DNA of 64,000 bases from Candidatus Omnitrophota bacterium (GTDB taxonomy: Bacteria; Omnitrophota; Gorgyraeia; Duberdicusellales; 4484-171), in contig JAIPGM010000002.1 of NCBI GenBank assembly GCA_021735655.1, positions 32,001-96,000 of the forward strand, read 5' to 3'. Positions 2,414 through 44,111 of this stretch are shown here, piece after piece (the stretch's first letter is position 1; the number at the start of each line of letters is the position of its first letter). Under the pieces are notes generated by a model that worked only from the letters and a program-made list of their open reading frames with translations, ran no database searches and was not told where the DNA came from. Position numbers and translations under genes: made by a program.

Positions 2414-3013
2414 ATGTCGCAAAGCATTGAGAATAAAGTAGTTAGCAGGATTTATGGTAAGAATAGGGGTTGGGTATTCACTCCAAATCACTTTCTTGAC
2501 CTTGGAAGCCGTACAGCCGTGGCTCAAGCCTTGGGGCGGTTGGCAAAAGCCGGTACTATTCGCCGATTGGCACATGGACTATATGATTATCCTGAGAAAC
2601 ACCCTACGCTGGGCGATCTTCCGCCTAACTATGAGCGGATAGCCCAAGCTTTGGCAGGAAGGGATAGTTTAAAAATTCAGCCATCGGGGGCGTATGCCGC
2701 CAATCTGCTCGGGCTTACTGAGCAGGTTCCTGCAAAGATTGTTTTTCTGACTGACGGCCCTAATCGCAAAGTACAAATAAACAAACAGCAGGTTGTCTTA
2801 AAAAGGACAACTCCTAAAAATATGGCCACTGCCATGCGGGTGAGCGGTCTGGTTATCCAGGCTCTGCGTCATTTAGGCCAAGATCATGTGGATGATAAAA
2901 TAATCGGGATGCTTAAGAAAAGATTATCCAGCGATGACAAGCGTCAGCTTATAAACGACCTTCGTTACGCTCCTGTATGGATAGGAAATATATTTCGGCA
3001 ATTACAAGGATAA
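2414..3013 (+). CDS. abiEi: type IV toxin-antitoxin/abortive infection antitoxin AbiEi
   Basis: 199 aa. N-terminal wHTH (..GLAKAGTIRRLAHGLYDYPE..) and overall similarity to the AbiEi family. It is immediately followed by the AbiEii nucleotidyltransferase. Confidence 0.8.
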   Translation: MSQSIENKVVSRIYGKNRGWVFTPNHFLDLGSRTAVAQALGRLAKAGTIRRLAHGLYDYPEKHPTLGDLPPNYERIAQALAGRDSLKIQPSGAYAANLLGLTEQVPAKIVFLTDGPNRKVQINKQQVVLKRTTPKNMATAMRVSGLVIQALRHLGQDHVDDKIIGMLKKRLSSDDKRQLINDLRYAPVWIGNIFRQLQG

Positions 3014-3020
3014 GAAGCCT

Positions 3021-4046
3021 GTGGACAAATTCGTATTATTGAGTGATAAAGACAAACGCGCCTATTTCGAAGTAGCCGCGGCTGACTTGAATGTAATGCC
3101 ACAGCTTATTGAAAAGGATTTCTGGGTTTGTTGGATACTCAGGACCCTTTTTTCGTTACCGTCATCAGGCAGTCACTTGACATTTAAGGGCGGTACATCA
3201 CTTTCAAAATGCTATGACGTTATCAGGCGTTTTTCAGAAGATGTCGATATTTCGATAGAAAGGTCTTTTTTATCAAGCCAACAGGCCATTGAACCTAAAA
3301 AACAAGAAAGTAACAAAGAAAACCAGCGAAGACTTGAAAGGTTACAGTTAGCCTGTCAAGCAAAGATCAGCGGCACTCTAATCCCAGAACTGAAAAAAAG
3401 TATTGCCGCTATTCTGACCGATAGAAAAAAATGGAATCTCGAAATCGATTCTAACGACGCATTAAAGCAGACAGTTTTGTTTACTTTCCCACACGCTTTG
3501 ACAAATAGTATGGAAAGCTACGTAAAGGCCGCTGTTAAAATTGAGTTTGGTTCCAGAGCCGACCATTGGCCTGTTGAAAATATGGCTGTTACGCCATATG
3601 TTGCTAATGTTTCAGACGATGTGACTATTGAAGGTGCATCAGTGCGTGTTTTAGCCGCAGAGCGGACCTTTTGGGAGAAAGCGACCATACTTCATATGAT
3701 ATATCATTATCCTGAAGGTAAGAATGTGCCTCCGCGGATGTCGCGGCACTATTATGATTTATTCGCGATGGTAGATTCTTTTGTATACAAGAAATCTTTA
3801 GAAAAAATATCGCTATTGAAACATGTATCCGATCATAAGTCTTTATTTTTTAAAGCTAACTGGGCGCATTATGAAGAGGCTAAACCGGGCAGCTTGCGGC
3901 TGGTGCCGCGCGATGACCAAATAAGCCAGTTGAAAACTGATTACCGACAAATGCAACAAATGTTTTTTGAGGATCCCCCGTCATTTGAGAGTGTTTTAGA
4001 GAAACTAAAAATAGCGGAAGATAAGATTAGCAGGGTCAAACAATGA
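3021..4046 (+). CDS. abiEii: nucleotidyltransferase toxin AbiEii/AbiGii (DUF1814)
   Basis: 341 aa with ..TFKGGTSLSKCYDVIRRFSEDVDISIE.. nucleotidyltransferase motifs characteristic of AbiEii. It is paired with abiEi. Confidence 0.8.
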   Translation: MDKFVLLSDKDKRAYFEVAAADLNVMPQLIEKDFWVCWILRTLFSLPSSGSHLTFKGGTSLSKCYDVIRRFSEDVDISIERSFLSSQQAIEPKKQESNKENQRRLERLQLACQAKISGTLIPELKKSIAAILTDRKKWNLEIDSNDALKQTVLFTFPHALTNSMESYVKAAVKIEFGSRADHWPVENMAVTPYVANVSDDVTIEGASVRVLAAERTFWEKATILHMIYHYPEGKNVPPRMSRHYYDLFAMVDSFVYKKSLEKISLLKHVSDHKSLFFKANWAHYEEAKPGSLRLVPRDDQISQLKTDYRQMQQMFFEDPPSFESVLEKLKIAEDKISRVKQ

Positions 4047-15444: not shown

Positions 15445-16548
15445 ATGGCTGAAGTAGTTTTAAAAAATATCACTAAATCTTACGCTAGCGGAGCTGACGC
15501 GGTTAAAGATATAAACCTTAAAGTAGAGGATAAGGAGTTTGTAGTTTTAGTTGGTCCCTCTGGTTGCGGTAAATCGACTACTTTGAGGATGATTGCCGGC
15601 CTTGAGCAGCCAACCAAAGGCGAAATTTATGTCGCTGATAAATTAGTAAATGAAGTTCCGGCAAAGGATAGGGATATTGCCATGGTTTTTCAAAACTATG
15701 CTCTTTATCCTCATATGAACGTTTACAATAATATGGCTTTTGCTCTGAAGTTACGTAACTATTCTCGTGAAGATATAGATACTCGGGTTAAAGATGCTGC
15801 TGAGATTTTGGGAATAAGTGCCTTAGTTGATAGAAGACCGCGACAAATTTCCGGTGGTGAACGCCAGAGAGTTGCCGTCGGAAGAGCAATCGTCCGGAAA
15901 CCTCAAGTATTCCTTTTTGATGAACCCTTGAGTAATCTTGATGCTAAGATGCGGGTTCAGATGCGAACTGAGATTCATAAGCTTCATTTAAAAATTCAGA
16001 CCACAATGATTTATGTAACTCACGATCAAACTGAGGCTATGACTTTAGGAGATCGAATTGCAGTAATGAAGGATGGTGAGATTTTACAATTTGATACACC
16101 GCTGAATGTTTATGATAATCCAGTCAGTAAGTTTGTTGCCGGATTTATTGGTTCACCGCCAATGAACTTTATGAATGGTAAAATGGTTAAAGATGATTCT
16201 GGTCTTTATTTTGACGAAGGAAGTTTTCGGGTCAGAGCTTTAGATGAGATGTATGAAAAGCTAAATGCTTATGCCGGAAAAGACATTATTTTTGGAATAC
16301 GTCCAGAAAATATTTACGATAAACTTTTTGCTTCTTATGCAACTGCCGATAATACCCTAAGTGTCCTTTGTGAGGTTATGGAAACTATGGGTTCGCAAAA
16401 CCATCTTCATTTCTCTACCGGAAAACACACCCTGATAGCTGTAGTTGAAGCCTCTAATAAACCTTCTATCGGAAGTATGGTTGAAGTAGTTTTCGATATG
16501 AGGAAAGTCCATTTTTTTGATCCTTCAAACGAACGTATCATTGTATAA
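15445..16548 (+). CDS. sugar ABC transporter ATP-binding protein (MalK/UgpC type)
   Basis: Walker A GPSGCGKST, signature LSGGERQRVA, Walker B LFDEPLSNLD, and a C-terminal TOBE-like domain. Confidence 0.85.
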   Translation: MAEVVLKNITKSYASGADAVKDINLKVEDKEFVVLVGPSGCGKSTTLRMIAGLEQPTKGEIYVADKLVNEVPAKDRDIAMVFQNYALYPHMNVYNNMAFALKLRNYSREDIDTRVKDAAEILGISALVDRRPRQISGGERQRVAVGRAIVRKPQVFLFDEPLSNLDAKMRVQMRTEIHKLHLKIQTTMIYVTHDQTEAMTLGDRIAVMKDGEILQFDTPLNVYDNPVSKFVAGFIGSPPMNFMNGKMVKDDSGLYFDEGSFRVRALDEMYEKLNAYAGKDIIFGIRPENIYDKLFASYATADNTLSVLCEVMETMGSQNHLHFSTGKHTLIAVVEASNKPSIGSMVEVVFDMRKVHFFDPSNERIIV

Positions 16549-17800
16549 GCGTAATATTCTTATAAGCTTACCGTTTCTATTAATAACTTCAGTCATTTTA
16601 TCTCTCCATCCCAAAGGGGGACCTCTCTTTTTAATTCCAGCCGCAGTCAGCATTGTGATATTTATAGTTGTCTGCAAGATCCGAACTTTTATTATTTCTC
16701 AGCATCAAGGTGAATTTGAGAATTTTGATGAAAAAATAAATATTTTAAATAAAAGCATCGAAGAGAAAAATAAGATTTTGAACTCGTTTCCTAAAAAAAG
16801 TGAGCGAGCTTCCTTCCTTTTTGATATTTCTAAGAGTTTAATTGAACTAATTGAACTGGAAGAAATTTTTAATTCATTAATTAAAATCCTGGAAAAACTT
16901 TTTCCCGAAGCCGACAGTATTTTGATTTTCAGTTTTGACAAGGAAGGCGGGGCCTTAGAGCTTAAGCACTCTCTGAAACGTAAATTTAATACGATAAAAG
17001 AGAAAAAAGGCAGTAGCTTGGATAACTGGGTATTACATCAAAATCGTTCGCTGTTGATTGAAGATATTACTAAAGATTTTCGTTTCGATGCATCTAAGCT
17101 TACGGCTTATTATGAGCGTCGAGCACATTCATTCGTTTTAAGTCCTTTGTCGGTTGGCCGCAGGTCATTGGGGTTGGTGCGGATTGAAAGCCAAAGGCCA
17201 GGGGAGTTTTCTTTAGACGATTCAAGGCTCCTGCGGAATGTTTGTGATTTGGGCGTAGTGGTTCTGGAGCGTTCAGTTCTTTTTAAAAAAATTAAGGAGT
17301 TAGCCACCAAGGATGCTTTAACCGGACTATTTGTGCGTAGTTATTTTTCAGAGTATTTTTCGAGAGAATTAAAACTTATTCAGCGCCAAAACGGTAGGCT
17401 AGGCCTGATTATGCTTGATATTGATGATTTCAAAAAAATAAACGATACTCATGGTCATGTAGTGGGTGATTTGGTTATAGTGAAATTAGCTGACATTTTG
17501 CAAAAGAGTCTCACTAAAAGATCCGGTATAGTTTCTCGGTTTGGTGGAGAAGAGTTTACATTGCTTTTGCTTGAAATCAGCCTTAAAGAGCTTGTTGCTT
17601 GCGCTGAGGAAATTCGTTATGCAGTCGCGGCAGCCAATTTAGCATTTCGCAGAAAGAAAATTCAGTTTACAGTTTCTTTAGGGGCGGCTCTTTATCCGGA
17701 CAATGCTACAACGCCTACTGGATTAATTGAGGAGGCCGATCGAGCACTCTATAAGGCTAAACGGGAGGGTAAGAACAAGACGTGTTATTCTGGACAGTAA
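16517..17800 (+). CDS. membrane-anchored GAF-GGDEF diguanylate cyclase
   Basis: N-terminal TM, central GAF-like region, and C-terminal GGDEF with an intact RFGGEEF active site. The start is uncertain: the track uses TTG overlapping the upstream stop. Confidence 0.75.
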   Translation: MILQTNVSLYKRNILISLPFLLITSVILSLHPKGGPLFLIPAAVSIVIFIVVCKIRTFIISQHQGEFENFDEKINILNKSIEEKNKILNSFPKKSERASFLFDISKSLIELIELEEIFNSLIKILEKLFPEADSILIFSFDKEGGALELKHSLKRKFNTIKEKKGSSLDNWVLHQNRSLLIEDITKDFRFDASKLTAYYERRAHSFVLSPLSVGRRSLGLVRIESQRPGEFSLDDSRLLRNVCDLGVVVLERSVLFKKIKELATKDALTGLFVRSYFSEYFSRELKLIQRQNGRLGLIMLDIDDFKKINDTHGHVVGDLVIVKLADILQKSLTKRSGIVSRFGGEEFTLLLLEISLKELVACAEEIRYAVAAANLAFRRKKIQFTVSLGAALYPDNATTPTGLIEEADRALYKAKREGKNKTCYSGQ

Positions 17801-18750
17801 TAGCTATTGGGGAAGTAATTTTTTTAATCGAGGCTATTGTTTTTTTAGTTTGGTTCCGTAGTCAGGCTAACAAGAAGCGAGAAAATCTGTCTAAACAGGT
17901 TGCAAGTTTAGAAGCATCCGAATTCCAAATAAGAACAAAACTTGATAACTTGGAATCTATTCTTGCTGAGCGTTTTCTTTTTTATGATATGACCCGCCGG
18001 CTCGCTCCTTTACTTGATAAAAAAGAGCTTTTTGCTAATTTTTTGCAAGAGTTAAGCTATCTTGGTCCGATTGAGACAATGGAATTGTCGACAGAAATAA
18101 TGCCCGAGGAGTACTTGAGGTTTGAACTAGGCAAGGGGGTTAGGGAGGTATTGTATTTAAAGACAAGCTCAAAGAAGGTTGCTGAATATGCTTCTTACTT
18201 TGTAAAGATATTGCGTTTATGTCTTGAGCGTATTCGTCTTTATGATCGATTACAGCAGCTGTCTATTTACGATTCTTTAACTAAGATTTATAATCGTCGC
18301 CATTTCATGCAAAGATTTCAAGAGGAATTTGAACGGGCTAAAAAGTTTAAGCATAATTTGGCATTCCTAATGATTGATATTGATCATTTTAAAAAAGTTA
18401 ATGATACCTATGGTCATTTAGTCGGTGACGTAATCTTAAGAGAGGTTGCTCGTTTGATTAAAAAGAGTACAAGAGGAATAGACTTAGTAGCTCGTTTTGG
18501 CGGAGAGGAGTTCTCGGTAGTTTTGCCGGAGACCGACAAAGGCGGCGCAATTATGCTGGCCGAGCGTATTAATCAACATATTAATCGAGCACCAATTAGT
18601 GCTTTTGACGAAAAAATTATAACAAAGGTAAGCGTTGGGGTTGCCTCTTACCCTGAGAATGCGGTTAATTCTGATATTCTTCTTGAAGTTGCTGATAAGG
18701 CTCTTTATAAGGCTAAAATTTCCGGTCGCAATCGGGTTTCTTGGTTTTAG
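17782..18750 (+). CDS. GGDEF diguanylate cyclase with N-terminal TM helix
   Basis: GGDEF domain with ARFGGEEF and an upstream RxxD (RGID) I-site. GTG start overlapping the previous stop. Confidence 0.75.
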   Translation: MLFWTVIAIGEVIFLIEAIVFLVWFRSQANKKRENLSKQVASLEASEFQIRTKLDNLESILAERFLFYDMTRRLAPLLDKKELFANFLQELSYLGPIETMELSTEIMPEEYLRFELGKGVREVLYLKTSSKKVAEYASYFVKILRLCLERIRLYDRLQQLSIYDSLTKIYNRRHFMQRFQEEFERAKKFKHNLAFLMIDIDHFKKVNDTYGHLVGDVILREVARLIKKSTRGIDLVARFGGEEFSVVLPETDKGGAIMLAERINQHINRAPISAFDEKIITKVSVGVASYPENAVNSDILLEVADKALYKAKISGRNRVSWF

Positions 18751-25705: not shown

Positions 25706-25753
25706 TTTTTAAAGGCCATTTGACTAGTTGGTTAATTTACTATATAATTTCTA

Positions 25754-27061
25754 TTGATGGATAAAAGAGCTCAAATAAAAAGTTTAGGTTTATTATCATT
25801 TTTTTTGTTTTTAAGTTTTAATTTATGCGCTCAAGATTTCCTTGATGAGCCGATATTTTCTCCGGTTGCCGATAAGGTCTCCCAATACCCCGCTTCTTCA
25901 ATTCTTTATAAACAGTACTTAGAAAATGGTAATCATTATCTAGATCAAGGTCTCTATCGTGAAGCAAAAGAACTATTCTGGAAGGCGATACATCTGTATC
26001 CTCAAAATCCCGATGCTTATATAAATTTAGGAACTGCTCATATGCGTCAAGAGGATCTCGACAGCGCTTTGAGAATTTTAAAAGATGCAGAAGGGCTTGT
26101 TAGTCAGGATTATCAGCAGATCGAAATTCTTTTTTATAATTTAGGAAAGTGTAATTTTTTAAAAGAGGATTACCATCAGGCAATCTTTTACCTTGAGAAA
26201 GCTTTGGCTGAGTTTTCTGACTTTGCCCAAGCTAGATATTATTTAGGAGTTAGCTATTATCGATTGGGCCAGAATGAAAAGGCTTTCGTGAATATATTTA
26301 TGGCTGCTGAGATGTTTGATAAAAATGGTGATCAGGCTACGAGCTTAGAGGTAAGACAATTTTTAAGAAATATTCAGGGTACTCAAAATATTGATCGAGT
26401 TTCTTTAGCCAAGAGTCTTTTTGGTGATGCTCAGGTAGCTTTAGCTAATCAAGAACTAAGTCGGGCCATTGTTTTAATGAAGGAGAGTATATTTTTAAAT
26501 CCCAATGATGCTAATGTCTACTATGAGCTGGCACTTATTTACTCGCGAGAAAATGCCTTCCATAATGCAATTATTTATTTGAATAAGGCAATTGAAGTTG
26601 ATCCTGGTTTTACTAAGGCTTACTTGGGCCTTAATCAAGCTTATCGCAAGGTAGAAAAATATGATTCAGCAGTTGAAATTCTCAAAGCAGCCGCAGACCT
26701 TGATAAGGAAAATCCTTTAATTTATTATAATATGGCTCTTGCTTCCATTGAGGGTCATGACTTTAATACCGCAAGAAGATATCTAACTGAAGCGGAATTG
26801 GGCGCTTTAGCTAACAAAGATGATCTTTTGCTTGAGAAGATAAACGTTGCCTATGGTTTGATTGAGCAATATAAGCAGGCAAAAACTAAGCCACCCTTCT
26901 TTCCTAAGAAAATCACGCGTAAACCGAGCGAGACTCTTTATCCTTATCATTCGCTACCAGGCAATTCTGGTAACTTTAGTGGTGGCTATTTTGTTGTCCA
27001 GCGTTCTACTGAGGATGAGCAAAAGAAGTCAAAAAGTCATCGGACAACCCTTGAATATTAA
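25754..27061 (+). CDS. secreted TPR-repeat protein
   Basis: Signal peptide followed by multiple 34-aa TPR-like repeats (..AYINLGTAH.., ..AYLGLNQAY..). Confidence 0.6.
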   Translation: MMDKRAQIKSLGLLSFFLFLSFNLCAQDFLDEPIFSPVADKVSQYPASSILYKQYLENGNHYLDQGLYREAKELFWKAIHLYPQNPDAYINLGTAHMRQEDLDSALRILKDAEGLVSQDYQQIEILFYNLGKCNFLKEDYHQAIFYLEKALAEFSDFAQARYYLGVSYYRLGQNEKAFVNIFMAAEMFDKNGDQATSLEVRQFLRNIQGTQNIDRVSLAKSLFGDAQVALANQELSRAIVLMKESIFLNPNDANVYYELALIYSRENAFHNAIIYLNKAIEVDPGFTKAYLGLNQAYRKVEKYDSAVEILKAAADLDKENPLIYYNMALASIEGHDFNTARRYLTEAELGALANKDDLLLEKINVAYGLIEQYKQAKTKPPFFPKKITRKPSETLYPYHSLPGNSGNFSGGYFVVQRSTEDEQKKSKSHRTTLEY

Positions 27062-27092: not shown

Positions 27093-27120
27093 TTGACAGA
27101 TATGATTTTGTAGATAGAAT
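27093..27120 (+). promoter_or_regulatory. candidate promoter TTGACA-N16-TAGAAT for tRNA-Glu
   Basis: -35 at 27093-27098 and -10 at 27115-27120, read directly. It is 15 nt upstream of the tRNA 5' end. Confidence 0.45.
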
Positions 27121-27135
27121 TATTATAATTTATTT

Positions 27136-27210
27136 GGCCCCATCGTCTAGTCCGGCCTAGGACACATGGTTCTCAGCCATGAGACACCGGTTCGAATCCG
27201 GTTGGGGCTA
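27136..27210 (+). tRNA. tRNA-Glu (anticodon CUC), no encoded CCA
   Basis: Folded by hand: acceptor GGCCCCA/TGGGGCT (G1-U72 wobble), D-arm GTCT..AGGAC as in tRNA-Glu, anticodon stem CATGG/CCATG with loop TTCTCAG giving anticodon CTC, T-arm ACCGG-TTCGAAT-CCGGT. Confidence 0.85.
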
Positions 27211-27262
27211 CTGTTTTTATTTCTCCCTATTGAATCCCCCCCTGTAGTGGTATAATTTAACT

Positions 27263-27925
27263 ATGAGAAAAGGATTTACCCTAATCGAACTAATAGTGGT
27301 CATTGCAATTATTGCAATTTTAGCTGCCATTATTGCTCCTAATGCTTTTAAAGCTATTGAGAAGGCAAAGATTGCAAAAACTATAGCCGAATTAAGGGTT
27401 TTCAAAACTGCTGCACATTCTTTGTATTCTGATACTGGTCGATGGCCAGGCTCTGGCGGAATTGGACCTATTGCTCAGTGGGTTTATCTTGATAATGGAT
27501 TAATTTGGCCGAGAACCCCTGCTGGTTTAAATAGCAGCTTGTTTGATAATGATGATGGAGTAGGAAATACAATTTCTGGTTGGGACGGACCGTATCTTGA
27601 TCGCCGATCATCTAAATCCGCTTGGGGTGGAACTTATGCTATGTATAAACGTTACAATGGTTTTCCTCAAACTGGATCTAGTGCCGGCGATCTTACTCTT
27701 GTTATTACTAGCATTTGTTATGGGTCACTTAATTCAGTGCTATCTAACAGGAATTGCCCTTTGAGTGAAGAATTAGCGGAGATAATTAATGGTAAAATTG
27801 AAGGCGACAATGATTTACGTTTTGACCAATCAACCGCCGGAAATTTTAGAAAGTTCCTTTGGGCTAACTCGGGTGATACTTGGGAAGGTTTTTATCATTT
27901 CATGATTGGAGAAGACGTTTTATAG
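27263..27925 (+). CDS. GspG-like pseudopilin / type IV pilin paralog 1
   Basis: Class III signal MRKG|FTLIELIVVIAIIAILAAIIAPNAF with Glu5, and GspG-like ..AIEKAK..L..Y..D.GRWP.. plus the WDGPYL motif. A TGGTATAAT -10 ends 7 nt before the ATG with no SD, suggesting a leaderless mRNA. Confidence 0.8.
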   Translation: MRKGFTLIELIVVIAIIAILAAIIAPNAFKAIEKAKIAKTIAELRVFKTAAHSLYSDTGRWPGSGGIGPIAQWVYLDNGLIWPRTPAGLNSSLFDNDDGVGNTISGWDGPYLDRRSSKSAWGGTYAMYKRYNGFPQTGSSAGDLTLVITSICYGSLNSVLSNRNCPLSEELAEIINGKIEGDNDLRFDQSTAGNFRKFLWANSGDTWEGFYHFMIGEDVL

Positions 27926-27938
27926 GGGGAGGCATCCC

Positions 27939-28496
27939 ATGAAAAAATCATTCACTCTAATCGAACTTATAGTAGTCATCGCTATTATAGCTATCCTTGC
28001 CGCAATTATTGCCCCGAATGCTTTTCGGGCTATTGAGAAGGCGAAGGTGGCTCAGGTGGTATCAGATTTAAAGACATTTAAAACAGCTGCTGTAGGTTAT
28101 TATGGGGATACTGGGCAGTGGCCACCAGATGGGGTTAGTTGGTTTACTGATGAAGAGCTGCAGTTTTTCATTACTGGAGTAGGGCAACCAGCAGGCTGGG
28201 ATGGACCCTATTTAGAAAGTTGGCCAAATCCACCTTGGCATTGTGAATTTGTCTATGGTGCTGATACGGTTCATGAAAATTATGATTGGGACCACTGGGT
28301 GGGGTGGTCTTATTGGGGTGTAGTGCCTGCGAATACTGATACTTGCGGTGCAAGTATTTCATGCGTTCCTCAAAAGTCAGCGACAAAGATAGATGTTAGT
28401 TTAGATGACGGTAACCCTTCTTCGGGCAGGGTTCGTTGGGTCAGCTCATATGCCGGTGGTTTCATGAATGCAATTATCATCGAAGGAGGACAGTAA
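27939..28496 (+). CDS. GspG-like pseudopilin paralog 2
   Basis: True start MKKSFTLIEL at 27939 with a GGGGGAGG RBS. The track ORF begins earlier at 27906. Conserved prepilin N-terminus and GWDGPYLE motif, with a divergent Trp-rich C-terminus. Confidence 0.8.
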   Translation: MKKSFTLIELIVVIAIIAILAAIIAPNAFRAIEKAKVAQVVSDLKTFKTAAVGYYGDTGQWPPDGVSWFTDEELQFFITGVGQPAGWDGPYLESWPNPPWHCEFVYGADTVHENYDWDHWVGWSYWGVVPANTDTCGASISCVPQKSATKIDVSLDDGNPSSGRVRWVSSYAGGFMNAIIIEGGQ

Positions 28497-28531
28497 AGGC
28501 CTGATTTGCATTGATAAGAGAAATAACTACT

Positions 28532-29134
28532 ATGAAAAAATCATTTACTCTCATTGAACTAATTGTAGTCATAGCTATCATTGCTATCCTTGCTGCAATC
28601 ATTGCTCCCAATGCCTTTCGTGCCATTGAGAAAGCTAAAATTACAAAAACCATTGCTGATCTAAAAGCCATAAAAACTGCCATTGGGGCTATGTATGCTG
28701 ATACTGGAAAATTTCCCAGCGGCTGTATTGCCTTTACCGTCAATGACCCTGAAGTTAATTTAGATACGGCACAGGCAGGGTTGGTATCCGAACCTCCGGT
28801 TGGAATTTTTACTGGCGCTACCGGCGGCACTTGTGAGTGGACCCAAGCTAATGTCAATTCTTGGGATGGTCCTTACCTTGAAAGCGGGCAAGTAAAGGAT
28901 GTTTGGCATTCAGCATATCATTATGACCCTGATTATTATTATTGCATAAATGGATATTTAAGCCCAGCTGGAGACGGGCCAATAACTAATTGCGGTGACG
29001 CTCCGGTAGCTCAAACTTGTCTAGAGGTATGCGGCGGCGCCTTTAACTGTGGCTTTCCAGTAATACAATCATTTGGCCCTGACAAAAGCGGTTATGGTTG
29101 TGATGATATTATAGTAAAAATGACACTCAATTAG
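28532..29134 (+). CDS. GspG-like pseudopilin paralog 3 (Cys-rich C-terminus)
   Basis: Start MKKSFTLIEL at 28532. WDGPYLE and the C-terminal SFGPDKSGYGCDDIIVK motif are shared with the 43503 paralog. Confidence 0.8.
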   Translation: MKKSFTLIELIVVIAIIAILAAIIAPNAFRAIEKAKITKTIADLKAIKTAIGAMYADTGKFPSGCIAFTVNDPEVNLDTAQAGLVSEPPVGIFTGATGGTCEWTQANVNSWDGPYLESGQVKDVWHSAYHYDPDYYYCINGYLSPAGDGPITNCGDAPVAQTCLEVCGGAFNCGFPVIQSFGPDKSGYGCDDIIVKMTLN

Positions 29135-29282
29135 TGAAAAATAAATAGATAATTAACCACTTTTCCAATCCCAATCAACCCAAAACCGACTATTTCCTTT
29201 CCGTTTGACCACTTTTTACCAAGATGGTTGACAGTTTGGTTGACATCTTACGCTTAACTACTTGAGCCATAATAGTTTTAAT

Positions 29283-29463
29283 AGGACGCATGGTTCTTAG
29301 TCATGAGACACCGGTTCGAACTCGCAATTATTTAGGTTTTTACCTCTCGAGTCCATGAGTACGCCGAAGGCGTACGAATGAATCCTTCCGCCTGCGGACT
29401 AAAGTCCTCGGCGGAATCCCGCCGAATCCGCCAAAGGCAGATGCAGGCGGGAGGTTGGGGCTA
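29283..29463 (+). pseudogene. tRNA remnant (3' two-thirds of the tRNA-Glu-like gene, anticodon loop now TTCTTAG) interrupted by a ~128-nt GC-rich structured insertion
   Basis: 29283-29320 AGGACgCATGGTTCTtAGtCATGAGACACCGGTTCGAA aligns with 27159-27196 of the tRNA-Glu. The tRNA 3' end GGTTGGGGCTA plus similar T-rich downstream sequence reappears at 29453-29477. No matching 5' acceptor strand is present. The intervening 29325-29452 folds into at least three GC hairpins (GTACGCC-GAA-GGCGTAC, TTCCGCC..GGACTAAAGTCC..GGCGGAA, CCCGCC..GGCGGG). Confidence 0.55.
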
Positions 29464-29619
29464 TTTGTTTTCATTTTTTCTTCAGAATTTTAGTAAATCC
29501 CATACGAATTAGTTTTCTATCTTTAAGGATGAGGCCAGGCTATATTTTGAGGTGGCATAAGAGTCAGCTGATGATATAATATGCTTAGTTCTAGAAGCAG
29601 TACATAAAGGGAGTAAAAG

Positions 29620-30543
29620 ATGAAAAAAGTAATCGTTGCGACAACAATACAAAACCCTACAGAAGCTATTGAAAAATTTGATAGTTTGAAGGAATGGACG
29701 CTTATTGTAGTAGGAGACTTAAAAACTCCAGAAAGTTATAAATTAGAAAATGGTATGTATTTCTCTCCCCAGGAGCAAGAAAAATATGATCAAGAGCTTT
29801 CTGATTTAATTGGCTGGAATACCCACGCGAGGAGAAATTTCGGCCATCTATTAGCAAAAGACATGGGTGCGGATGTTATTGCATGTGTGGATGATGACAA
29901 TATTCCGTATAATACATGGGGAAAAGACATTTTTATAGGAAAAGTTGTAGAGGCTAATTACTATGAATCTGACCTCGAGGCTTTTGACCCTGTAGGCGCT
30001 ACTAATCACCCTTACTTATGGCATAGAGGTTTTCCTATTCAGCTAATAAATAAAAGGGATTATAGTAAAAAAATAAAAAAGAAAATAAAAGTAGATATCC
30101 AAGCAGATTTTTGGAACGGTGATCCGGATATAGATGCTATATGCCGAATGATTTATAAATCGGAGGTTAGCTTCGAAGAACAGTATTTTCCTATAGCGTC
30201 TAACAAGCCGTCTCCTTTTAATTCGCAAAATACATTTATTGCGAAAGATGTCCTTCCATATTGTTTTTTTCTTCCACATATTACGCCACTTGGAAGACAG
30301 AGTGATATAGGGATCTCTTATCACTTAGCATCGCTGGGATATAATGTTATATATTGCAAGCCGTCTGTTTATCAGGCTAGAAACACACACAACTTAACTA
30401 TAGATATGGAGGATGAGTTTAAGGGATATATGAGCAATATAGATATCGTAAGAGCTATAGGCAATGGAACGTATAAGAAAGAAGACTTCTGGCCTGAACA
30501 GACATGCGCAGCATATGAGGTTTATCAGAGGAGATTTAAGTGA
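29620..30543 (+). CDS. GT75-like protein (reversibly glycosylated polypeptide / UDP-arabinopyranose mutase family homolog)
   Basis: By-eye alignment with plant RGP1. IVATTIQNP...LIVVGD resembles IVIPTIRN...IIVQDGD. DVIACVDDDNIP resembles YIFTIDDDCF. HRGFPIQL...DFWNGDPDIDA resembles RGYPFSLREGV...GLWLNIPDYDA. RQSDIGISYHLASLGYNV...NTHN resembles RYDDMWAGW..HLGLGVK...SNP. A TATAAT -10 and AAGGGAG RBS lie upstream. The gene is A+T-rich. Confidence 0.45.
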   Translation: MKKVIVATTIQNPTEAIEKFDSLKEWTLIVVGDLKTPESYKLENGMYFSPQEQEKYDQELSDLIGWNTHARRNFGHLLAKDMGADVIACVDDDNIPYNTWGKDIFIGKVVEANYYESDLEAFDPVGATNHPYLWHRGFPIQLINKRDYSKKIKKKIKVDIQADFWNGDPDIDAICRMIYKSEVSFEEQYFPIASNKPSPFNSQNTFIAKDVLPYCFFLPHITPLGRQSDIGISYHLASLGYNVIYCKPSVYQARNTHNLTIDMEDEFKGYMSNIDIVRAIGNGTYKKEDFWPEQTCAAYEVYQRRFK

Positions 30544-31460
30544 AGAATAGCAACGATACAAAAATCAATAATTCACTTTCCGGCATACTTTGTTGTATAA
30601 ATTTCAACGAAGTGCACTACGACAATATAGAATTTTTAAAAGATTTGTATAGCAATTTTGTTGATGTAGTTTTTTACGGGCCAGAGCGGAAGCAGGGGTT
30701 CGAAGTAAATCAATTATGCCACCATCGTGGCTATTTTAGTTATGCAGTGATATTAGACGCAATTAAAAAATTTCCAGATTACAATGGATATATATTTGTT
30801 AATGATGATTGTATCATGAATATATGGCAATTCATAAATAAAGACAAGACTAAAGTATGGTTGCAGCCGTTTCATTCTAAAGTTAATCGCCATGATTATA
30901 AAGAAAGCACATGGTTTTGGCTGAATGAGCCATGCGGTATCTCTGCTTATGGTAAAGCTTTCTTGCAAATCCCGCGTAGATACCGTGAAAGGCTTAAATC
31001 GTCATTTGGGTCTGAAGATGCTGTGATTTGTGGACCTGCTGATTGTTTTTATTTGCCCAAAAGACGGATAAATGATTTTGCTTCCTTGTTTGATATATAT
31101 TTTTCCAACAGGGTGTTTACTGAAATAGCGGTGCCTACTGGCCTATACGCAATCGAAGATAAGGCACAAATTACAGTTTTCAAGGGTCATGACAGAGTGA
31201 CATTTCCTTTGTCATTTATTCCTTATGACCTAAAAGCAAAAATATTCTACAGAGGAGAGTTGGACTTATACCATCCTTTAAAATTGTCTAATTCTAAAAT
31301 GAGATCTATGGTTAAAAATATGTTTAATGTATATCTTTTTCAAAGAAATAAATTTTTTTCAAAAATTTTAAGATTATGCGATTTGCTACGTCCTTTTATT
31401 TGGTTTTGGGCATATATGTATATGATTCAGGGGAGATTTTTGAGAAAGATTCGTTATTGA
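30540..31460 (+). CDS. putative GT-A-fold nucleotide-sugar transferase (hydrophobic-DDx motif YIFVNDDC), unknown family
   Basis: 306 aa. Its start overlaps the stop of the GT75-like gene, indicating an operon. The DxD-like motif is preceded by a beta-strand-like hydrophobic run. No confident family assignment. Confidence 0.3.
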   Translation: MKNSNDTKINNSLSGILCCINFNEVHYDNIEFLKDLYSNFVDVVFYGPERKQGFEVNQLCHHRGYFSYAVILDAIKKFPDYNGYIFVNDDCIMNIWQFINKDKTKVWLQPFHSKVNRHDYKESTWFWLNEPCGISAYGKAFLQIPRRYRERLKSSFGSEDAVICGPADCFYLPKRRINDFASLFDIYFSNRVFTEIAVPTGLYAIEDKAQITVFKGHDRVTFPLSFIPYDLKAKIFYRGELDLYHPLKLSNSKMRSMVKNMFNVYLFQRNKFFSKILRLCDLLRPFIWFWAYMYMIQGRFLRKIRY

Positions 31461-31537
31461 AAAGTTATATGAGAAAGTAGAAGCAAACTGTTAACTTATA
31501 GTTTCGTGATATAATTTTAAGCAGAGGAGGTACCCTA

Positions 31538-31657
31538 TGAAAAAATCATTCACCCTCATCGAACCAATAGTAGTCATTGCTATTATTGCAGCAATCATCG
31601 CCCCTAATGCGTTTAAAGCTATTGAAAAAGCAGAGGAAGTAAAATGTCCACTTGGTG
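31538..31657 (+). pseudogene. truncated pseudopilin gene fragment (39 codons)
   Basis: MKKSFTLIEPIVVIAIIA-AIIAPNAFKAIEKAEEV... is the conserved prepilin N-terminus with a 3-codon in-frame deletion and L->P change, then an early stop. It retains a GATATAAT -10 and GGAGG RBS. Confidence 0.6.
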
Positions 31658-31846
31658 GCAAGATAAGAATCTAGGAGGTAGGTGGTATTGGAAATTAATA
31701 TTAATGGTGCTATTTGTTGGTATTGCTGTACGAATCATTATTAGCATATCAATAAGATAACAGGTGATTTAATTTTATAGTATTTTTTTATTATGAAGTT
31801 GTTGATAACGGCTGGTCTATTTTTAATCGGATTCACAACTAGTCAT

Positions 31847-31901: not shown

Positions 31902-32258
31902 TTATTCTTTCAAAAGATAAAATCGGATATGATCCAGAATCTGTTTTTTTGAATCCTGGCTGATCTTTCGAAATTTCATGCCTATCAAATAAGGATAGTT
32001 GCGATCGTTAGTCTCGTTTCTCCTTACTACCTCGGCAGTAGCGATGATAGGTTCTTTTTTCTCAGGAACATATATGCTTAGGTCCATTCTCTCACCTATG
32101 TCTAACTTATAAGGGGTCATTAAGCATATCCCGTCTTCGGAAATATCCTCACTCAAGGCATTGTGCTCAAATAGGTATTTAACCGGACAGCGAAATACGT
32201 TTAATTTTGCTTTAAGTCTGAAGTGTTTTCTTTCATTAACTCTCATGGTTGCCTCCAT
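31902..32258 (-). CDS. PilZ-domain c-di-GMP binding protein
   Basis: RxxxR (RKHFR) and DxSxxG (DISEDG) PilZ motifs with correct spacing. GGAGG RBS. 118 aa single-domain protein. Confidence 0.75.
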   Translation of the reverse strand: MEATMRVNERKHFRLKAKLNVFRCPVKYLFEHNALSEDISEDGICLMTPYKLDIGERMDLSIYVPEKKEPIIATAEVVRRNETNDRNYPYLIGMKFRKISQDSKKQILDHIRFYLLKE

Positions 32259-33354: not shown

Positions 33355-33430
33355 TGAGTTATTATACCATAAATGGGTTTATTTTCTAACTTGTTTTGAT
33401 TTTTTAGGAGTTGTGGTATAATTTTAGCTT

Positions 33431-34192
33431 ATGTTAGCAAAAAGGATCATTCCCTGTCTTGATATAAAGGATGGCCGAGTCGTAAAAGGGGTTAATTTTA
33501 TTAACCTACGCGATGCTGGAGACCCGGTAGAGAATGCCCATATTTACGAGAAAGAGGGAGCTGATGAGTTGGTATTTTTGGACATTACCGCAAGTCCTGA
33601 GAAACGATCAACTACCGTAGAATTGGTTCGTCGGGTGGCTGAGGTTGTGTTTATGCCTTTTACCGTCGGTGGTGGGGTAAGAACTGTTAGCGATATCCGT
33701 AAACTTCTTTTAGCTGGAGCAGAAAAAGTATCTTTGAATACCGCGGCAGTTAAAAATCCTCAGATTATTAGTGATGCTAGTGGAGTTTTTGGGGGTCAAT
33801 GTATTGTTGTGGCTATCGATGCAAAGCTAAATTCAAAAACTAATAAGTGGGAAGTCTATGTGAATGGTGGTCGGACTCCGACCGGTTTAGATGTTTTAAG
33901 GTGGGCGAAAAAGGTCGAAAGATTGGGAGCCGGTGAAATTCTTCTTACCAGCATGGATTTTGACGGGACTAAGGAAGGCTTTGATATAGTTTTAACTAAG
34001 GCAGTATCCGAAAGCGTGAATATCCCGGTGATTGCTTCTGGTGGCGCTGGTAGACTTAAAGATTTTTTTGAAGTTTTTGAAAAGACTAAGGCTACTGCTG
34101 GGCTGGCAGCTTCAATATTTCACTATAGAGAGATTGAAATCGGCGAAATTAAAAAATATTTGCAAAAAAAAGGGGTGACGGTGAGAGTATGA
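33431..34192 (+). CDS. hisF: imidazole glycerol phosphate synthase cyclase subunit
   Basis: [20 protein letters not shown]...full-length HisF TIM-barrel similarity. Confidence 0.93.
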
Positions 34193-43449: not shown

Positions 43450-43502
43450 TTTGAAAATCGTAGTTAGGGGTGCTAAAATAAATATCAATTAAGGGAGGGT
43501 AT

Positions 43503-44111
43503 ATGCGTAAAGGTTTTACTCTAATTGAACTAATTGTAGTCATCGCGATTATCGCTATTTTAGCTGCTATCATCGCCCCTAATGCTTTCAAAGCAATTGA
43601 AAAAGCCAGAAATGCTAAGACAATAGCTGATTTGAAAGCCATAAAGACTGCGATAACCGCTTTGTATGCTGATACAGGGAGGTTCACTCGTGGTTGTGCT
43701 GCTTTTGTAACTACTGAGCTTGAGATGAGGTTAAATGATGAGGGTGTAGGTTTGCTAGATAAGCCTGTAGCGAGAGTGTGGCATGCTGGTGGTTCTGGTG
43801 ATGCGCCTTGCGAATGGACTGCAAGTAATGTGGAGGCTTGGGACGGACCTTATGTTGAGGGTGGTAACCTTATTGATGTTTGGCAAGAGGCTTATATCTA
43901 TGATGGTGATTATACAGTTTGTACGATTAACTGTGCTGGTGGTTGTGTGTTTAATATTTATACTGAGTGTGCTTCAGCTGATCCAGCACGATTGTTATGT
44001 GAAGATGAATGTGGCCCAGCTGGACCCTGTAAGCCCCCAGTTTTGGGTTCGTTTGGTCCAGACGGTGAGTGGTACACTTGTGATGATATAGTAGTGAAGC
44101 TTAGCAACTAA
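43503..44111 (+). CDS. GspG-like pseudopilin paralog 4 (14 Cys in the mature region)
   Basis: MRKG|FTLIELIVVIAIIAILAAIIAPNAF, AWDGPYVE, and the C-terminal SFGPDGEWYTCDDIVVKLSN motif shared with paralog 3. GGGAGGG RBS. Confidence 0.8.
   Translation: MRKGFTLIELIVVIAIIAILAAIIAPNAFKAIEKARNAKTIADLKAIKTAITALYADTGRFTRGCAAFVTTELEMRLNDEGVGLLDKPVARVWHAGGSGDAPCEWTASNVEAWDGPYVEGGNLIDVWQEAYIYDGDYTVCTINCAGGCVFNIYTECASADPARLLCEDECGPAGPCKPPVLGSFGPDGEWYTCDDIVVKLSN

Follow-up and report, generated by a model that had tools for sequence, protein, structure and literature searches.

A type II secretion system (T2SS) needs a single conserved major pseudopilin, the protein called GspG, PulG or EpsG; Thermus thermophilus supplies several major type IV pilins, PilA4 and PilA5 (PDB 6xxd, 6xxe), to one machine; and in the pilE/pilS system of Neisseria an expression locus receives stored cassettes by recombination through a common 5′ region. 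A family of pilin genes in a 64-kb stretch of DNA from a Candidatus Omnitrophota bacterium (contig JAIPGM010000002.1, positions 32,001 to 96,000; the whole stretch is called the window below) is compared here with these and other described systems. The window has 38.8% GC and nearly all of its genes lie on the + strand. Its four full pilin genes, named pil1 to pil4, are read here, at a probability of roughly 0.6, as encoding major-type subunits, with a GspG/PulG-like fold, that serve one type IV filament machine as alternatives.

The gene family is of an expected type and was annotated before this analysis, and the pil genes are ordinary pilins. What is notable about them is modest: an N-terminus of 36 residues that is invariant to an unusual extent among the paralogs and in most of the family members sampled, Ser as a frequent residue at position -1, and a Cys-rich insert that is conserved in a head of the GspG-like type.

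Pilin identity and GspG-like fold

An initial annotation of the window had placed four complete paralogs at starts 27263, 27939, 28532 and 43503, and open reading frames were found at exactly these positions. It had overlooked a fifth, truncated copy, which is listed last.

27263-27925, + strand: pil1, 220 aa, MCF7907501.1; prepilin leader MRKG before Phe
27939-28496, + strand: pil2, 185 aa, MCF7907502.1; prepilin leader MKKS before Phe; Shine-Dalgarno (SD) sequence (GGGGGAGG) ahead of the start
28532-29134, + strand: pil3, 200 aa, MCF7907503.1; prepilin leader MKKS before Phe; 8 Cys; C-terminus SFGPDKSGYGCDDIIVK
43503-44111, + strand: pil4, 202 aa, MCF7907520.1; prepilin leader MRKG before Phe; 10 Cys
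31537-31674, + strand: truncated pilin remnant, 45 codons; own -10 TGATATAAT and a GGAGG SD sequence

The remnant has L6P, has lost three codons of the hydrophobic helix and stops early, and is probably a pseudogene; it is predicted as a 45-aa gene on a Logan contig as well. Beyond the window, the 322,746-bp contig carries one more full-length paralog (MCF7907694.1). The NCBI product names are 'type II secretion system protein GspG' or 'prepilin-type N-terminal cleavage/methylation domain-containing protein', GspG being the name given to four of the five paralogs.

The shared N-terminus described in the initial annotation was readily recovered. Residues 1 to 36 are the same in pil1 to pil4 save at positions 2 (R/K), 4 (G/S) and 30 (K/R), residue 36 being R in pil4, and each of the four has Phe at +1, Glu at +5, Pro22 and a hydrophobic helix. 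The proteins also have in common α1C, DTG, WDGPY and then a W..Y strand. A motif WDGPY(L/V)E had been proposed, of which WDGPY is invariant; the continuation is LE in pil2 and pil3 and VE in pil4, as expected, but LD in pil1.

Profile searches identified all four proteins as pilins. The Pfam profile N_methyl (PF07963) matched each of them at 28.3-32.9 bits (cut-off 21.2), as did TIGR02532 at 22.7-36.1 bits (cut-off 16.3), and T2SSG (PF08334) was above its cut-off in pil2 (31.4 bits) and pil3 and borderline in pil4. GspG (TIGR01710) was the top NCBIfam family throughout, with 52.0, 62.0, 55.0 and 55.5 bits, and the GspH/I/J profiles scored far more weakly in all four. The pilin profile PF00114 stayed below its cut-off of 22, reaching 16.6 bits in pil3 only.

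Sequence matches in the PDB spanned the α1 helix only, with type IV pilins and PulG about equal, and the last 100 aa of pil3, searched against the PDB sequences, gave nothing significant. Structure prediction of the heads gave a confident GspG-like model for pil3 (AlphaFold from the family alignment, pLDDT 92.5) and a poor model for pil1 (pLDDT 64), which for that reason was excluded from the fold search. The best fold matches of the pil3 model in the PDB, found with Foldseek, were the T2SS major pseudopilins 3gn9, 4lw9, 3g20 and 1t92, with a probability of up to 0.97, yet an E value of just 0.05-0.3. The head of pil3 has a GspG-like fold, with an insert bearing four extra cysteines. The N_methyl and T2SSG matches and this fold match uphold the earlier description of the family as GspG-like pilins.

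The likeness to GspG/PulG/EpsG (TIGR01710, PF08334; PDB 4lw9, 5wda, 3gn9, 3g20, 1t92) extends to the class III signal peptide, F+1, E+5, P22 and the long α1 helix, and the WDGPY..(D)xW..Y stretch matches positions 52-77 of the T2SSG profile. As a counterpart of the calcium-binding loop near the C-terminus of GspG, S.GPD....CDD was considered in pil3 and pil4, and DDGN in pil2; the S.G.D....DDI tail of pil3 and pil4 presumably resembles this C-terminal loop in general pattern. Unlike GspG, which has about 140 residues, the pil proteins have 185-220, with Cys-rich or Trp-rich insertions in their heads. There are at least five paralogs per genome, scattered among housekeeping genes and not within a gspC-M operon, and Ser at -1 is as frequent as Gly in the family.

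Ancient paralogy and conserved head types

Over the first 36 codons the copies differ at 15-19 synonymous codons per pair, and their nucleotide identity is 72-83%. At degenerate positions where the amino acid is invariant the fraction of identical codons is 0.42-0.52, close to the 0.41 expected of random draws from the codon usage of the window, and the synonymous sites are therefore saturated. This implies that the N-terminal identity has been kept by selection at the protein level and not by recent recombination. No exact nucleotide tract longer than 20 nt was found between any two copies, anywhere in the copies. The initial annotation had noted many synonymous differences across these codons, had proposed ancient paralogs rather than conversion cassettes, and had named shared tracts of nucleotide identity as the sign of the opposite; its proposal stands, and a gene conversion or cassette system is rejected on the 20-nt maximum and the saturation-level codon identity.

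The same N-terminus is widespread in the phylum. pil3 had 1804 homologs, and among the matches listed every organism-named source was Omnitrophica/Omnitrophota. In a family sample of 126 retrieved members (P0001-P0128), 94 agree with pil1 at 29 or more of the 32 mature N-terminal residues, and 30 agree at every one. The residue at -1, before the predicted cleavage site, is Ser in 53 of these members, Gly in 51 and Ala in 14. In the window the Ser(-1) codons are at 27948-27950 in pil2 and 28541-28543 in pil3, and Gly(-1) is found in pil1 and pil4. Ser at this predicted position is a departure from the canonical Gly(-1) rule. At least six family members are spread over four contigs of another metagenome-assembled genome (MAG).

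No conserved locus could be defined for the orthologs of pil2 and pil3, which lie in unrelated neighbourhoods. The closest ortholog of pil3 (P0002, 83%, locus L084) comes directly after a gene with faint glycoside-hydrolase Pfam matches, and that of pil2 (68%, locus L085) lies between a gene of unidentified function and DoxX. The unrelated contexts suggest that individual pilin genes relocate between related genomes. Tandem arrays of pilin-like genes are common across many phyla.

The heads proved more orderly than had been supposed. They had been described as hypervariable and as differing completely, but pil3 and pil4 can be aligned from end to end with 54% identity, all four proteins share the WDGPY core elements, and each head type is a subfamily conserved in other Omnitrophota. 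Against its 83% ortholog the head of pil3 gave a nonsynonymous divergence (dN) of 0.10 and a synonymous divergence (dS) of 1.0; with dN/dS of about 0.1 it is under purifying selection in this comparison, on which diversifying selection on the heads was rejected. For pil2 against P0122 dS was saturated and uninformative.

The Cys-rich subfamily, to which pil3 and pil4 belong, has about 28 full-length members with eight conserved Cys positions, four of them universal and four located in the insert, which is absent from shorter relatives. The 10-14 cysteines of the initial annotation were an overcount: pil3 has 8 and pil4 has 10, and 12-14 are seen only in relatives from other genomes. Cys counts are even in 20 of the 24 aligned members of this type, and disulfides in these heads are likely, to judge from the sequences. 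Of the eight conserved positions, 65 would be expected to pair with 101 and 154 with 190, with the insert cysteines 138, 163, 167 and 173 pairing among themselves. The motif SFGPD..Y.CDDI.VK, formerly assigned to the whole family, is present in pil3 and pil4 and absent from pil1 and pil2, and so belongs to one subfamily.

The Trp-rich head, as described, is that of pil2 (10 W in 185 aa), and this type has four full-length orthologs with 52-68% identity over the head query. A third type, HPWGG.Y ... CYP..C ... KID..DDGN..G.FR ... W.L.WD, is represented by the extra paralog, P0059, and by pil1 in degenerate form. In an exhaustive HMMER scan just eight of 1.84 billion representatives matched the pil1 head, the best at 37%, and pil1 is for this reason called a fast-evolving outlier, as far as its sequence tells. 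It nevertheless aligns over its full length to the well-populated CYP/DDGN subfamily, whose motifs have degenerated in it; an orphan domain was thus rejected, the head being divergent and not new.

Prepilin-type expansions of the PVC group (DUF1559 / H-X9-DG) are similar in having many paralogs with a pilin-like N-terminus and diverse C-terminal domains. The pil family differs from these in its distinct N-terminus (IIAPNAFKAIEKAK) and in its GspG-like head with WDGPY and no H-X9-DG domain. At an Omnitrophota MAG locus (L025) two 218-aa proteins have the N-terminus LLVVVAII..LLPALSKARE and are of the DUF1559 type as judged by eye only.

Assembly machinery in relatives and competing readings

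At two loci from other MAGs a pilin with the family N-terminus is part of a machinery cluster. In L017 (332-10940; Omnitrophota label) the order is a secretin, an ATPase with MshEN and T2SSE domains, a pilin-like gene, the family pilin, an ABC ATPase and more N_methyl genes. In L012 (373-7577; Planctomycetales label) an MshEN and T2SSE ATPase is followed by the family pilin, an ABC ATPase, an ABC-2 permease and more N_methyl genes. The pilin with its ABC ATPase, and in L012 the permease, recalls pilA-pilGHI of Myxococcus xanthus, if these genes are counterparts of PilH and PilI; unlike in Myxococcus, such an arrangement is absent from the window. Motifs of PilB/GspE-type ATPases were found in the Omnitrophota-labelled loci L010, L022, L029, L059, L062, L072 and L081, all of them retrieved by a match to a pilin, irrespective of the distance to a pilin gene. 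Type-4a pilus (T4aP) genes have been reported from nearly all Omnitrophota (PMC10066038).

In the mechanism proposed for alternative subunits of one filament machine, each pil product would be a prepilin with a four-residue basic leader (MRKG or MKKS), which a prepilin peptidase would cut before Phe+1. The α1N helix, invariant in the paralogs and near-invariant in the family (F1, E5, P22), would anchor the prepilin in the inner membrane, and a single machine of PilB/GspE-type ATPase, platform and secretin, its genes elsewhere in the genome, would polymerise all of the paralogs. Purifying selection has frozen the first ~36 residues, which suggests that all paralogs suit the same peptidase, platform and filament core. 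The paralogs differ in the head, which would face outward: pil3 and pil4 have the Cys-rich insert, probably stapled by disulfides, pil2 a Trp-rich head and pil1 the divergent CYP/DDGN type. Separate promoters and ribosome sites would let the cell switch or blend the fibre surface, and the fibres may serve in attachment to surfaces or to host or prey cells. Such a system would be like that of Thermus PilA4/PilA5 in having more than one major-type pilin per genome and so differing fibre surfaces. Unlike in Thermus, the N-terminal 36 residues are virtually identical among the paralogs and the sampled family, and the heads are GspG-like.

Several points count against this reading. PilB/C/D/M-Q and GspC-M genes were not found in the window by Pfam context and motif scan, nor was a prepilin peptidase gene. 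With 52-62 bits, the GspG matches do not reach the equivalog cut-off of 88.85. Half of the family, pil2 and pil3 included, has Ser and not the canonical Gly at -1, and cleavage at this site is assumed. In the poor pil1 model the core alone is confident and the loops are disordered, and pil1, with its subfamily motifs lost, may be decaying. Finally, the evidence fits both a surface T4aP and a periplasmic T2SS endopilus without separating the two.

This last point leads to the alternative that survives best, although it is considered unlikely: the pil proteins would be true T2SS major pseudopilins, i.e. GspG orthologs, forming a short periplasmic endopilus and not surface pili. Such an endopilus might, with the same small chance, drive substrates through a secretin, for example glycoside hydrolases or the giant proteins of Omnitrophota. 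This reading is favoured by the best fold and profile matches (GspG, EpsG, PulG), by the NCBI names and by the position of the pil3 ortholog P0002 directly after the gene with weak glycoside-hydrolase matches. The scores below the equivalog cut-off speak against it, and the pil genes lie outside any gsp operon: no gspC-M context with GspH-K surrounds them, and GspD/E/F are absent from the window. At least five major-type paralogs, with enlarged and differing heads, are also difficult to reconcile with an endopilus of GspG. In the literature, T2SS-like loci with many small class-III-signal-peptide genes have been described near giant Omnitrophota genes, beside which they are conserved (bioRxiv 10.1101/2023.11.21.568195; 10.64898/2026.06.07.730766), but T4aP, and not T2SS, is common in the phylum according to TXSScan-based surveys (PMC10066038).

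It is improbable that pil1-pil2-pil3 encode minor pilins forming a tip or initiation complex like GspH-K or FimU-PilVWX. Three differing pilin-like genes in tandem, in one probable operon, are indeed what minor-pilin operons look like, and extra N_methyl genes adjoin family members in related loci. This reading is nevertheless weak, as E5 and the major-type N-terminus are kept in every copy, the GspH/I/J/K scores are at most 27 bits against 52-62 for GspG, and a large GspK-like or PilY1-like partner gene is absent. Moreover, pil4 and P0059 are solitary, and a family member occupies the position after the ATPase in both the L017 and L012 clusters.

Antigenic variation of the pilE/pilS type, which the set of pilin copies, alike in the 5′ part and variable in the 3′ part, superficially resembles and for which the truncated copy at 31537-31674 might be cited, is effectively refuted by the short tracts and saturated synonymous sites, by the four complete genes, each with its start codon and with a promoter or SD sequence of its own for pil1, pil2 and pil4, where silent 5′-truncated cassettes with identity tracts to an expression locus were not found, and by heads that are under purifying selection and fall into subfamilies stable from genome to genome.

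Start signals, tRNA-Glu repeat and neighbouring genes

The candidate promoters and the tRNA-related features near the pilin genes are as follows.

27230-27256, + strand: candidate promoter of pil1; TTGAAT, 15 nt, extended -10 TGgTATAAT
43451-43479, + strand: candidate promoter of pil4; TTGAAA, 17 nt, TAAAAT with TG ahead; then SD sequence GGGAGGG
27136-27211, + strand: tRNA-Glu(CTC), found with ARAGORN; Rfam tRNA 56.9 bits; immediately upstream of pil1
29238-29480, + strand: degenerate tRNA-Glu copy; promoter and 3′ two-thirds of the tRNA; just downstream of pil3

The extended -10 that had been reported close before the pil1 ATG, with no SD sequence, is indeed there: TGgTATAAT occupies 27248-27256, six bases upstream, and the promoter scanner missed the site solely through its 15-nt spacer. 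TATAAT stands 5-9 nt upstream of only 4 of the 1039 + strand ATGs, and because three of these four are operon-head starts (25757, 27263 and 33431) the leaderless layout looks like a real feature of the genome. The two others that head operons, the TPR gene (start region 25743-25759) and hisF (start region 33417-33433), have a perfect TATAAT 8 nt before the ATG and no SD sequence. Leaderless-type starts look recurrent in this genome from such signals, and a leaderless pil1 transcript is plausible; alternatively, transcription from the strong promoter of tRNA-Glu, 170 nt upstream, could run on into pil1, with the transcript then cut by tRNA processing. A strong SD sequence precedes pil2, which starts 13 nt past the pil1 stop, and upstream of pil3 there is only a weak AAGAGA stretch.

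The genes pil1-pil3 are bracketed by the tRNA-Glu gene and its degenerate copy. The former has the promoter TTGACA-16-TAGAAT at 27093-27120 (promoter scan 11/12). In the copy, TTGACA..ATAATA resembles a promoter. Over the anticodon and T arm it agrees with the tRNA-Glu gene at 36 of 39 positions; its anticodon reads CTT instead of CTC, and it lacks the 5′ acceptor strand and D arm. Its T loop is split by a 132-nt insert of 55% GC with a strong predicted fold (z -5.8). The copy with its insert matched no Rfam family, and the junction pattern was absent from the metagenome contigs searched. A horizontally acquired island was not supported, as the GC content exceeds that of the flanks only slightly (0.40-0.46 against 0.33-0.40) and an integrase is absent.

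The neighbours of the pil genes are the tRNA-Glu gene, a TPR protein, an NYN-domain protein, the two proteins described next, one of them weakly STELLO-like, and housekeeping genes, and pil4 is solitary between rsmA-like and SNF-transporter genes. Two adjacent genes of no assigned function, encoding 307 and 306 aa, lie at 29620-31460 between the pilin cluster and the remnant. The 306-aa product has a weak match to STELLO glycosyltransferases (23 bits, below cut-off) and the 307-aa product has a DDD motif and no Pfam match; a role for them in pilin glycosylation is speculation.

A stand-alone PilZ-domain gene lies at 31902-32258, 2.8 kb downstream of the pilin cluster and on the - strand, which is rare here. 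At 16517-18750 two open reading frames in tandem appear by eye to be of the GGDEF type, with a GGEEF motif in their translations. The extra paralog P0059 is a solitary gene right after PAS-sensor and HD-type (HAMP/HD_5) genes. Taken at the level of domains and motifs, these genes hint at control by c-di-GMP.

Elsewhere in the window a fluoride riboswitch (62.7 bits; 956-1423 region) immediately precedes a crcB-like gene for a fluoride channel (1031-1423), and a pair resembling a type IV toxin-antitoxin system consists of a DUF6088/AbiEi-like gene (2414-3013) followed by an AbiEii nucleotidyltransferase toxin gene (3021-4046; 130.6 bits).

If the pil genes do encode alternative subunits of one machine, a bolder and rather doubtful suggestion is that the frozen helix of ~36 residues acts as a 'universal adaptor' on which many anciently diverged heads, reinforced by disulfides or Trp, provide switchable surfaces for binding host or prey. 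It is equally tentative that the scattered, separately promoted genes would form a switchboard, including the possibly leaderless one beside the duplicated tRNA-Glu.

The lineage is one of ultra-small cells, as the initial annotation had supposed. Omnitrophota have not been cultured and are believed to rely on a host or on prey, and pili belong to the short list of candidate contact organelles that have been reported from them (PMC10066038). The automatic 'GspG' labels in their genomes are insufficient to establish a T2SS. The phylum has a large family of pilins in which the assembly helix hardly varies and the heads fall into a limited set of conserved types, several of which occur in one genome. 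This family and its head types are targets for metatranscriptomics, labelling in cryo-electron tomography and binding studies.

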